Origin: Escherichia coli
GTDB lineage: Bacteria; Pseudomonadota; Gammaproteobacteria; Enterobacterales; Enterobacteriaceae
Assembly: GCF_003790525.1 (NCBI RefSeq)
Contig: NZ_CP033635.1
Length of the DNA: 64,000 nucleotides
Direction: 5' to 3' (one strand)
This document shows, piece after piece, positions 26,906-29,965 of the stretch. Below the pieces are notes generated by a model that was not told the DNA's origin, did not search any database, and saw only the letters and a program-made list of their open reading frames with translations. The translations under genes and the position numbers were made by a program. Each line of letters begins with the position of its first letter. Positions within the stretch are counted from its first letter, which is position 1.

Positions 26906-27212
26906 ACAGTTGTAGTTGAGCACAAAATCAGGACACCGGGATAACCTGTTTCCACTTTTCTTCATGTAGCCAAGGCGGTAAACCATCGTTGTTCGTGTGA
27001 GGTCGATAAACGTTATAATAACCATTAATCCACTGGTTTATATCGCGTACCGCATGGCTAAAATCACCATACCACCTTTCGGAAACCATTCACTTTTAAG
27101 GCTGCGAAAGACTCTTTCCATCGGCGAATTATCCAGGCAATTCCCTCTGCGTCTCATACTTTGCATTACCCCATAACGCCAGAGTAACTTTCTGTATTTA
27201 TTGCTTTTATAC
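26906..27212 (-). pseudogene. IS3-family transposase (OrfB) C-terminal fragment, truncated on both sides by IS1414 and IS66
   Basis: ORF 27038-27223 contains ...[22 protein letters not shown]..., the conserved IS3-family integrase-core C-terminal motif. Confidence 0.5.
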
Positions 27213-27242
27213 GTAAGCGTCAACGGAGCACCGTATTGACGC

Positions 27243-28856
27243 TTATTTATTGGTGAGTACTACGTTCCATGGCAGGAGTTCATCAACTCGGTTGGAAGGC
27301 CATTCCGGCAGTACGCTCAGGATATGGCGCAGATACGCTTCCGGATCGATACCGTTCAGACGGCAGGTGCCGATCAGCCCGTACAACAGTGCTCCACGCT
27401 CGCCGCCGTGATCGCTGCCAAAGAACATAAAGTTTTTCTTTCCGAGACAGACTGCACGAAGCGCTCTTTCCGCAGCATTATTATCCGCCTCCGCCAGACC
27501 GTCATCACTGTAATAACAGAGGGCATCCCACTGATTCAGTACATAGCTGAACGCTTCGCCCAGTCTGGATTTTTTCGACAGCGTACCATTCTTCTCCACC
27601 ATCCATTCATGCAGCGACGTCAGTAACACTTTGCTTCGCTGCTGCCTGACGGCAAGACGCTCTGACTCCGGTAATCCCCATATTTCATCCTCGATGGCGT
27701 ACAGTTCACTGATTCGCTTCAGGGCTTCTTCTGCCGTCGCACTTTTGCTGCTGATGTATACATCGTGGATTTTTCGCCGGGCATGGGCCCAGCACGCAAC
27801 TTCTGTCAGTGCACCACCTTCACGTTCTGCACTGAACAACCTGTCGTAACCTGTGAACGCATCCGCCTGCAGGATACCCCGGAAGGGGCGGAGGTGTTGC
27901 TCCGGGTGTTTCCCCTGCCGGTTCGGCGAGTACGCGAACCAGACCGCTGGAGGAGATGACGAACCCACATTGCGATCATCCCGGACATACGTCCAGATAC
28001 GCCCTGTTTTCGCCTTTTTCTGACCCGGTGCCAGTACCTTTACCGGTGTGTCATCAGTGTGAACCTTGCGGGTGTTCATTACATAACGGTACAGGGCATC
28101 ATTCACCGGTGTCATTAACTGGCAGCACGCGTCAACCCAGTTGGAGAGTAAGGCCCGGCTCAGTTCGACACCCTGGCGGGCAAAGATTTCACTCTGACGA
28201 TACAGTGGCAGATGTTCGCAGTATTTTCCCGTTAACACGCGGGCAAGTAATCCGGGGCCCGCGATACCACGCTCTATCGGGCGGGACGGCGCCGGTGCTT
28301 CAACAATACAGTCACATTTTGTACAGGCTTTTTTTACCCGTTCTGTGCGGATCACTTTCAGGGCACTGCTCACCAGTTCCAGCTGTTCAGCGCTGACTTC
28401 CCCCAGATAATCCAGCTCACCGCCACACTCCGGGCAACAGCTTTCTTCTGGCTCCAGGCGGTGTATTTCACGGGGAAGGTGTGCCGGTAACGGACGACGA
28501 TGGCGCGACTGTCGCAACTGGCGGGGAACCTGAGGATCGTCTTCCCGCCCACTGTAACGATCGCTGTCCTGCTCACGTTGTTTCAGCAGAGCCTCAGCCA
28601 GTTCAACTTCACGACGCAGTTTTTCAGAACGGGTACCGAACAGCATCCGGCGCAGTTTTTCTATCTGAGCCCGCAGATGTTCTATTTCCCGTTCATCTTC
28701 TTCGATCTTTTCTTCGGCACGTGTCAGTGCAGAGCGCAGGAAGGCTTCCGTCTCTTCAACCAGACTCAGTTGCTGGTCTTTCTGACGGAGGGCTTCAGCC
28801 TGCTCAGAGAGCAACCTTTCCAGCTCTGCGATGCGAATGAGGTATTTCTGACTCAT
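27243..28856 (-). CDS. IS66-family transposase TnpC (Orf3)
   Basis: 537 aa; N-terminal coiled coil/leucine zipper, zinc-ribbon Cys cluster and DDE domain typical of IS66 Orf3. Confidence 0.9.
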
Positions 28857-28886
28857 GACCGTTTTTATAATGCGGTCAGGAGTTTT

Positions 28887-29237
28887 TTACAACATTGTCA
28901 GTGAGTTACGGCTGGATGTTTTTGGCTGACGCCAGTCCAGCTTATCGAGGAGCATTGCCAGTTGCGAGCGGGTAATGGATACCTTGCCGTCACGTACCGC
29001 AGGCCAGATAAACTGGCCTTCCTCCAGGCGTTTGGTGAACAGGCACAGACCATCAGCATCAGCCCAAAGAATTTTGACGGTGTCACCCCGTCGGCCACGG
29101 AAGATAAACAGGTGACCGGAGAAGGGATTATCATTCAGCACATGTTGTACCTGTTCTCCCAGTCCGTTGAAGGATTTACGCATATCGGTAACGCCGGCAA
29201 CGAGCCAGATACGGGTACCTGATGGGAGTGAGATCAT
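28887..29237 (-). CDS. IS66-family TnpB (Orf2)
   Basis: 116 aa; recognisable IS66 Orf2 sequence (...WLVAGVTDMRKSFNGL...). Confidence 0.85.
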   Translation of the reverse strand: MISLPSGTRIWLVAGVTDMRKSFNGLGEQVQHVLNDNPFSGHLFIFRGRRGDTVKILWADADGLCLFTKRLEEGQFIWPAVRDGKVSITRSQLAMLLDKLDWRQPKTSSRNSLTML

Positions 29238-29659
29238 CTTCCCCTCCCGGTCAGTTCACGGATCAACACTGTGAGCAGCTCTGGCGATGGATTTTCCAGC
29301 GTCATGTTACCGTGACGGAATTCCACCTTGCAGGAACTGGCACTGACTCTGGTCTGAGTGGAAGTGGATAAAGACGGCGCAATGGCCGCCACAGGTTCTT
29401 TCTGCTCATCCGGCGTTATTTCTACAGGTAATAATTCAACGCCAGTGTCAGAAGAGGTCGTTACCGGAAGACGCCGCGAAACACGCCCTTCGTTCTGCCA
29501 GAGCCTGAGCCATTTGAAAATAACATTATCATTGACGCCATTTTCACGTGCAATCTGTGCAACACAAGCTCCAGGTTGTGATGCCAGTTCCACCATACGA
29601 AGTTTGAATTCATTCGAATAGTTTTTACGAGGTTCTTTTCGCCAGTCCTGTAATTCCAT
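29234..29659 (-). CDS. IS66-family TnpA (Orf1)
   Basis: 141 aa with N-terminal HTH; overlaps Orf2 as in IS66. Confidence 0.85.
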   Translation of the reverse strand: MELQDWRKEPRKNYSNEFKLRMVELASQPGACVAQIARENGVNDNVIFKWLRLWQNEGRVSRRLPVTTSSDTGVELLPVEITPDEQKEPVAAIAPSLSTSTQTRVSASSCKVEFRHGNMTLENPSPELLTVLIRELTGRGR

Positions 29660-29744
29660 ACTTAGATGTCCGTCTATATCAGATGGGCGTCTAAGTTACC
29701 AATTCTCGTCTGATGGCTACATACGGCGGTCAGTTTACGCTTAC

Positions 29745-29965
29745 TTATCAACGCCATGTTCCCGGGACAGTTGTGCGATATTGGCATTTGGTTTCGAAGC
29801 CAGTTCAACCATATGAAGCTTAAATTCATTAGAAAATATCCGGCGGGTCCCGGAGCGCCAGTCTGTAGGTTTATCCATCAATAGAACTCCGTCTAATTTA
29901 GAAGGAGCTCTAATTTAGTCTGCAAGGAGCAGGTGTTACAGACGGCGCTGGCTTTACGCTTACAA
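29745..29965 (-). mobile_element. Truncated second IS66-family end (terminal repeat plus 5' part of an orf1 homolog)
   Basis: Sequence 29760-29880 is a diverged paralog of the orf1 start region at 29530-29660; GTAAGCGTAAAGCC (reverse complement) at about 29950-29965. Confidence 0.5.

Follow-up and report, generated by a model that had tools for sequence, protein, structure and literature searches.

Four insertion sequences (ISs) of known kinds are nested between positions 25591 and 29963 of the window (the whole 64,000-nucleotide sequence analyzed here, from Escherichia coli contig NZ_CP033635.1), within a genomic island. The island is a selC one (tRNA-Sec lies at positions 56538 to 56632), and the sequence of 25.4 to 30.3 kb together with the list of open reading frames places all four mobile-element pieces head to tail on the minus strand: a complete IS1414, the right end of an IS3-family element, a complete ISEc23, and the left end of an ISEc43-like element. 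Element proteins were scored with NCBIfam profile models, the BLAST comparison set comprised 5426 complete E. coli genomes, and ISEc23 was named by RefSeq-annotated copies rather than by the ISfinder reference. The features of the nest are as follows.

25583-25590: left copy of the IS1414 target duplication, ACAGTTGT; the same 8 bases recur at 26906-26913, and the empty site has a single copy
25591-26905, minus strand: IS1414 copy 2 (IS256 family), 1315 bp, with a 402-amino-acid transposase at 25625-26833; assigned by model NF033543, inverted repeats, and the empty site
26906-26913: right copy of the IS1414 target duplication, ending in TGT, the 3 bases with which the IS3-family terminus begins
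26911-27212, minus strand: right-end fragment of an ISKpn37-like IS3-family element (here "ISX"), 302 bp; assigned by identity to a UTI89 element and by profile matches
27213-29744, minus strand: complete ISEc23 (IS66 family), 2532 bp, with the right inverted repeat at 27213 and the left at 29744
29745-29963, minus strand: left end of an ISEc43-like IS66-family element, 219 bp, comprising the inverted repeat and 46 codons of tnpA
29964-30028: 65-bp spacer between the ISEc43-like end and the conserved 3' flank of mgtC, seen only in the window and in strain TUM9803

Anatomy of the nest

Elements of the IS66 family carry tnpA, tnpB, and tnpC, of which TnpC is the IS66-type DDE transposase and TnpA and TnpB are accessory proteins. 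All three genes are consecutive on the minus strand of the ISEc23 copy (tnpA at 29234-29659, 141 amino acids; tnpB at 28887-29237, 116 amino acids; tnpC at 27243-28856, 537 amino acids), with a 4-base overlap between tnpA and tnpB, and their products match the IS66 transposase model NF033517 (TnpC, 448.9 bits against a cutoff of 180), NF033819 (TnpB, 120.9 bits against 50), and NF047595 (TnpA, 83.0 bits against 74). The element runs from GTAAGCG at 27213-27219 to the complement CGCTTAC at 29738-29744, and its terminal inverted repeats, which begin with GTAAGCG, match at 20 of 24 bases. It shares its 2532-bp length, GTAAGCG termini, and gene order with RefSeq ISEc23 (TnpC WP_000080195.1, TnpB WP_000624722.1, TnpA WP_000422741.1), is identical to three independent RefSeq copies annotated ISEc23 at 2529 bases (99.88%), and has all three genes intact with unchanged TnpA and TnpB protein sequences. 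What sets the window copy apart is the lack of an 8-bp target duplication and three private single-nucleotide polymorphisms (SNPs; 27282, 27680, and 28572, relative to the three RefSeq copies, which are identical to one another), of which the one at 27680 lies in tnpC codon 393 and produces the substitution R393W in TnpC. ISEc23 abounds, being matched in a majority of the 5426 genomes and in >950 plasmid records at ≥99% identity, and both it and IS1414 are probably still mobile. All ISEc23 copies examined also share a hairpin with a 9-bp stem (AAGCGTCAA ... TTGACGCTT) at 27216-27245, within the right terminal repeat and just 3' of the tnpC stop codon.

Beyond the left end of ISEc23 lies a second IS66-family left end, with the terminus CGCTTAC at 29957-29963 and 46 codons of tnpA (NF038385, E value of 3e-9). 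This fragment is 96 to 97% identical, across the left inverted repeat and the initial 46 codons of tnpA, to a RefSeq-labeled ISEc43-family element in E. coli S9 (NZ_CP107122.1) and just ∼65% identical to the corresponding region of ISEc23; it is therefore a different member of the family and not a decayed ISEc23 copy. The S9 element continues from ...GGTTG into TTATCAACGCC at the point where the left end of ISEc23 cuts the window fragment, of which only 219 bp are kept. The ISEc23 copies of S9 and two plasmids instead lie within the ISEc43 element 167 bp nearer its left end (window-equivalent positions 29912-29919), flanked by a clean duplication.

On the other side of ISEc23, ISX keeps the terminal repeat TGTAGTTGAGCACAAAATCAGGACACC and the frameshifted C terminus of orfB, is cut at 27212, and belongs to an element whose orfA/orfB −1 frameshift region is absent from the window. 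Two overlapping frames match NF033516 at profile positions 287-331 and 328-365 (E values of 3e-14 and 2e-6), which identifies the DDE (integrase-core) OrfB of the IS3 family from the C-terminal 100 codons that are left. A degenerate but uninterrupted 1233-bp element in UTI89 (NC_007946.1, 4833838-4835070) is 95.7% identical to the fragment over its positions 1-303, the TGTAG terminal repeat among them, whereas ISX is truncated at position 303 and frameshifted. The termini are of the TG...CA type of the IS3 family, with TGTAGTTGAGCAC starting at 26911 and the full UTI89 copy ending in CCACTACA (...CTACA). The Prokaryotic Genome Annotation Pipeline supplies only the generic name "IS3 family transposase"; relatives at about 89% identity carry an ISKpn37-family label.

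IS1414 copy 2 has the features expected of the IS256 family, namely, a single IS256-type transposase (402 amino acids; NF033543, 428.8 bits against a cutoff of 150), terminal inverted repeats beginning GAGCCTGT, and a target duplication of 8 bp, within the 8 to 9 bp of the family. It is 99.9% identical to a TUM9803 copy, and nothing about it is unusual beyond its being a lineage-specific late insertion. The sequence ACAGTTGT occurs twice in the window and once in strains HCM-27C-1 and TUM9803, where an identical protease gene flank and IS3 fragment are present and IS1414 is absent; these loci are thus the empty site. The target site overlapped just the first 3 bases of the IS3-family element, and homology among independent copies of that element begins at 26911 (TGTAG...), its natural inverted-repeat end, so IS1414 does not truncate the IS3 fragment; it is a simple, late, clean insertion at the outer edge of the IS3 element. 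A sequence-only reading of the region had taken the IS3 OrfB fragment to be truncated by IS1414 copy 2 on one side and by a complete IS66-family element (GTAAGCG termini at 27213 and 29744) on the other, with a second, diverged IS66 left-end/orf1 fragment beyond. The nest stands, including the complete element, the cut in the IS3 fragment, past which intact copies read on, and the second fragment; the truncation by IS1414 does not, given the intact IS3 terminus and the empty site in two strains. The window holds another IS1414, copy 1 (1657-2932), which matches copy 2 only from 25630 and lacks its 39-bp terminus; one end of copy 1 thus appears, from this alignment, to have been truncated or replaced.

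Chimeric flanks of ISEc23 and the linkage of two modules

IS66-family elements generate 8-bp target duplications (PMC6778807), and perfect duplications flank ISEc23 in three further genomes: CGCCAGAG within the same IS3 element, some 25 bp from the window joint (L001); AATTTAGT inside ISEc43 (L003); and GCGTAAGT at a site that the window has unoccupied, at 6777-6784 (L006; the insertion is that found in strain GF124.3). The window copy, by contrast with these, is flanked by TTTTATAC on the IS3 side and TTATCAAC on the ISEc43 side, with no duplication. This absence is a property of the history of the copy and not of the element, and membership in the IS66 family stands. Each flank carries on, without a mismatch, the element from which it derives: at three loci (L001, L011, and L013), intact IS3 copies continue past ...CTTTTATAC with TGAACACC, and the other flank continues ISEc43 as found at L003. 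Since the flanks come from the interiors of two different elements and there is no duplication, the window ISEc23 is best read as the chimeric joint of a second rearrangement; judging from the order ISEc43 tnpA, ISEc23, and IS3 interior, which a single insertion could not produce, a second event must have replaced one flank. The nesting proposed in the sequence-only reading also survives the possibility that the flanking fragments belong to one element, because they derive from two unrelated ones (IS3 family and ISEc43-like IS66), and its suggestion of a breakpoint between upstream and downstream accessory modules is supported both by the missing duplication and by comparison with related genomes.

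In those genomes the two modules are linked to other neighbors. The upstream module (10430-27208, 16.8 kb) encodes SodC, an ABC transporter, AbgT, and an S6 peptidase of the serine protease autotransporter (SPATE) type, and in HCM-27C-1 and in island 2 of TUM9803 it adjoins tellurite resistance (ter) genes; the same IS3 fragment is cut there 4 bp earlier by a 74-bp IS2 end, which is followed by an ISCro1-like IS66 element and then the ter genes. The downstream MgtC module (window position 30029 onward) occurs in selC islands without the upstream protease module, and TUM9803 carries both modules with 1.09 Mb between them. Where the MgtC module begins on its left side varies as well: at 29964 in both the window and TUM9803; at 30029 in GF124.3, with a direct joint to a truncated TRAP transporter permease gene, and in Ch1, with IS2 as the neighbor; and at 30049 in SMS-3-5, with an IS4-family pseudogene as the neighbor. 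By these comparisons, the nest is a true synteny breakpoint in a locus heavily reworked by ISs.

Island 1 of TUM9803 is collinear with the window at 99.9% identity but for a 19,951-bp deletion of window positions 9526-29476, which fuses IS2 orfB (window 9525) to ISEc23 tnpA (window 29477) at a 5-bp microhomology (CGCCC). This deletion joint implies that a window-like state with a complete IS2 and ISEc23 came first. The joint between ISEc23 and the ISEc43-like fragment (29744/29745) is also 100% common to the window and TUM9803 and is therefore the older of the two ISEc23 joints.

The nest interrupts no host gene. The S6 protease gene points toward it on the plus strand, with its end at 25487, as does mgtC on the minus strand, with its end at 30163. 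Rfam and promoter/terminator scans of 25 to 31 kb recovered no Rfam family and no signal above background, and we view the nest as mobile DNA that is tolerated, together with a rearrangement scar.

Several further observations concern the same island. A complete IS2 (9100-10430, minus strand, OrfB of 301 amino acids) lacks a 5-bp duplication (flanks ACGATG and CTCCC), and the left edge of the 16.8-kb protease module directly adjoins the left end of this IS2; the 74-bp IS2 left-end fragment of HCM-27C-1 and TUM9803 island 2 adjoins the right edge of the module instead. GF124.3 joins window position 7534 directly to 30029, and Ch1 has IS2 without a duplication at that joint, one T apart. Within the protease module, a perfect direct repeat offset by 48 bp (14132-14236) at the boundary of two ABC transporter permease genes is single copy in TUM9803 island 2, and the S6/SPATE autotransporter gene (21663-25487, 1274 amino acids) has a segment (24448-24587) that is divergent and 51 bp shorter than the sequence for the 1291-amino-acid protein of HCM-27C-1 and TUM9803. 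Farther downstream, an IS911-like IS3-family fragment (46200-46935) follows a LysR-type regulator gene; the protease module of TUM9803 island 2 begins about 70 bp after the equivalent fragment, which marks 46200-46935 as another module boundary.

A proposed history and its rivals

The explanation that we consider likely is that a nest of four ISs formed between two convergent accessory modules of the selC island, which were joined by a second rearrangement at ISEc23. An ISEc43-like IS66 element would first have resided beside the mgtC 3' flank, and ISEc23 would then have inserted into its tnpA in the same orientation, giving the joint at 29744/29745. A second rearrangement would next have swapped the DNA at the other end of ISEc23, fusing its right end to the interior of the IS3 element (27212/27213) and bringing the 16.8-kb serine protease (S6 peptidase) module beside the MgtC module; candidate mechanisms are homologous recombination with an ISEc23 copy inside an IS3-family element and an ISEc23-promoted adjacent deletion. 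IS1414 would have arrived last, by a clean insertion at the outer tip of ISX. The anatomy of the nest, the lack of a duplication at ISEc23, the IS1414 empty site, and the differing linkage of the two modules elsewhere are observed directly; this order of events and the mechanism of the third step are what we infer.

For that third step, we give recombination between two ISEc23 copies about an even chance, and we favor it because of a precedent in Agrobacterium, where homologous recombination between a pair of IS66 copies produced an IS66 element whose 8-bp flanks are mismatched (PMC6778807). The IS66-mediated deletion in pAt15955 resembles the window in leaving a single element with differing flanking 8-mers, each of which matches the outer flank of a different parental copy; it differs in that the Agrobacterium work observed the two parental copies and repeated the deletion by experiment, whereas no parental copy was found for the window. 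Two joints would be diagnostic if found: CAGTTTACGCTTAC followed directly by TTTTATACTGAACACC would represent the parental ISEc23 inside the IS3 element and support homologous recombination, and CAGGTTGTTATCAAC followed directly by GTAAGCGTCAACGG would represent the parental ISEc23 insertion in ISEc43.

Several observations weigh against this account. Neither reciprocal joint (the ISEc23 left end followed by TTTTATAC-TGAACACC, or ISEc43 ...GGTTGTTATCAAC followed by the ISEc23 right end) was contiguous in any of the 5426 complete genomes, in which only split matches at other insertion sites were recovered. The joint between the IS3 element and ISEc23 likewise occurs nowhere else in the complete genomes, in plasmids (>950 ISEc23 records), or in metagenome contigs and species-representative genomes, the last two of which were scanned for exact matches and gave none. 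No donor or parental state is documented, and a repeat-induced misassembly in the source record would look no different at the left joint.

The other candidate and main alternative, an adjacent deletion promoted by ISEc23, is the less likely of the two. After insertion into the ISEc43-like tnpA (with TTATCAAC as the duplication), the right end of ISEc23 would have attacked nearby DNA on the same molecule, with loss of what was left of the ISEc43-like element and of all DNA as far as position 303 of the IS3 element. Such a route requires a single ISEc23 copy, in keeping with the failure to find a second copy or a reciprocal product, and it fits the contrast between the joint at 29744/29745, which is common to TUM9803 and so older and stable, and the left joint, which is unique to the window. 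We found no documentation of intramolecular transposition by IS66-family elements in the sources read, however, the documented case of mismatched IS66 flanks is one of homologous recombination (PMC6778807), and no ancestor with the deleted DNA is known. It is unlikely that the third step had a cause other than copy recombination or adjacent deletion.

An assembly artefact, in which a short-read assembler joined the flanks of different ISEc23 copies and the order IS3, ISEc23, ISEc43 is absent from the cell, appears very unlikely. ISEc23 is indeed multicopy and widespread, and the left joint appears in no other record searched, but from the TUM9803 deletion it follows that a close relative had IS2 and ISEc23 on a single molecule, ordered and oriented as here, and the private SNPs, three in number, are dispersed over this ISEc23, a pattern that does not point to a collapsed consensus. 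A simple insertion of ISEc23 into a preexisting junction between the IS3 and ISEc43 elements, with the duplication later eroded by point mutation, is refuted by the parent-element continuations of both 8-mers and is extremely improbable: the flanking 8-mers agree at 5 of 8 positions, but each exactly continues its own parent, so that they are not two copies of one target, and it is implausible that 3 of 8 bp were substituted right next to an element conserved at 99.9%.

Three other arrangements were considered and rejected. A composite transposon has its cargo between two copies of one IS, with a duplication around the entire unit, whereas one from IS2 to ISEc23 (9100-29744) would have flanking elements of different families, neither of which has a duplication; an origin of IS2 and the protease module as a circle or composite transposon does not fit the IS2 orientation and the missing duplications; and a UTI89-like ancestor, with the IS3 element beside an IS66 TnpA fragment, fails because the UTI89 IS66 fragment has no DNA similarity to the window fragment.

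Clustered breakpoints and the significance of the nest

Five independent breakpoints fall within ∼45 bp of the 1233-bp IS3-family element, at positions ∼271 to 315 (window 27180-27212 and four other loci): an ISEc23 insertion with the duplication CGCCAGAG, IS2 at position 299, a relE joint at 301 (pUMNK88), ISEc23 at 303 (the window), and IS91 at 315 (pUTAK-4). The 5' region of ISEc43-like elements has likewise received ISEc23 on two occasions, with the orientation the same each time. Positions ∼271 to 315 may be an AT-rich target hotspot. We regard it as quite unlikely, nevertheless, that ISEc23 and other ISs prefer short stretches of resident ISs through sequence- or structure-directed targeting rather than by chance: the sample is biased in that three of the five breakpoints were found through similarity to the window, and the excess in the IS3 element is not significant once these three window-derived cases are excluded.

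Every element in the nest, and the general phenomenon, is already known, and neither a new kind of element nor a new mechanism is involved. The practical value of the analysis lies in annotation, in that the boundaries of four mobile elements are now fixed. For the island itself, the nest marks the seam that joins a secreted serine protease module (SPATE type, S6 peptidase) to the selC island, and the TUM9803 selC island is a deletion derivative of the fuller state seen in the window, in which IS2 and ISEc23 are both complete. The locus is a further example of an IS66-family element as a joint in island reshuffling, a case of ordinary bacterial genome scrambling.

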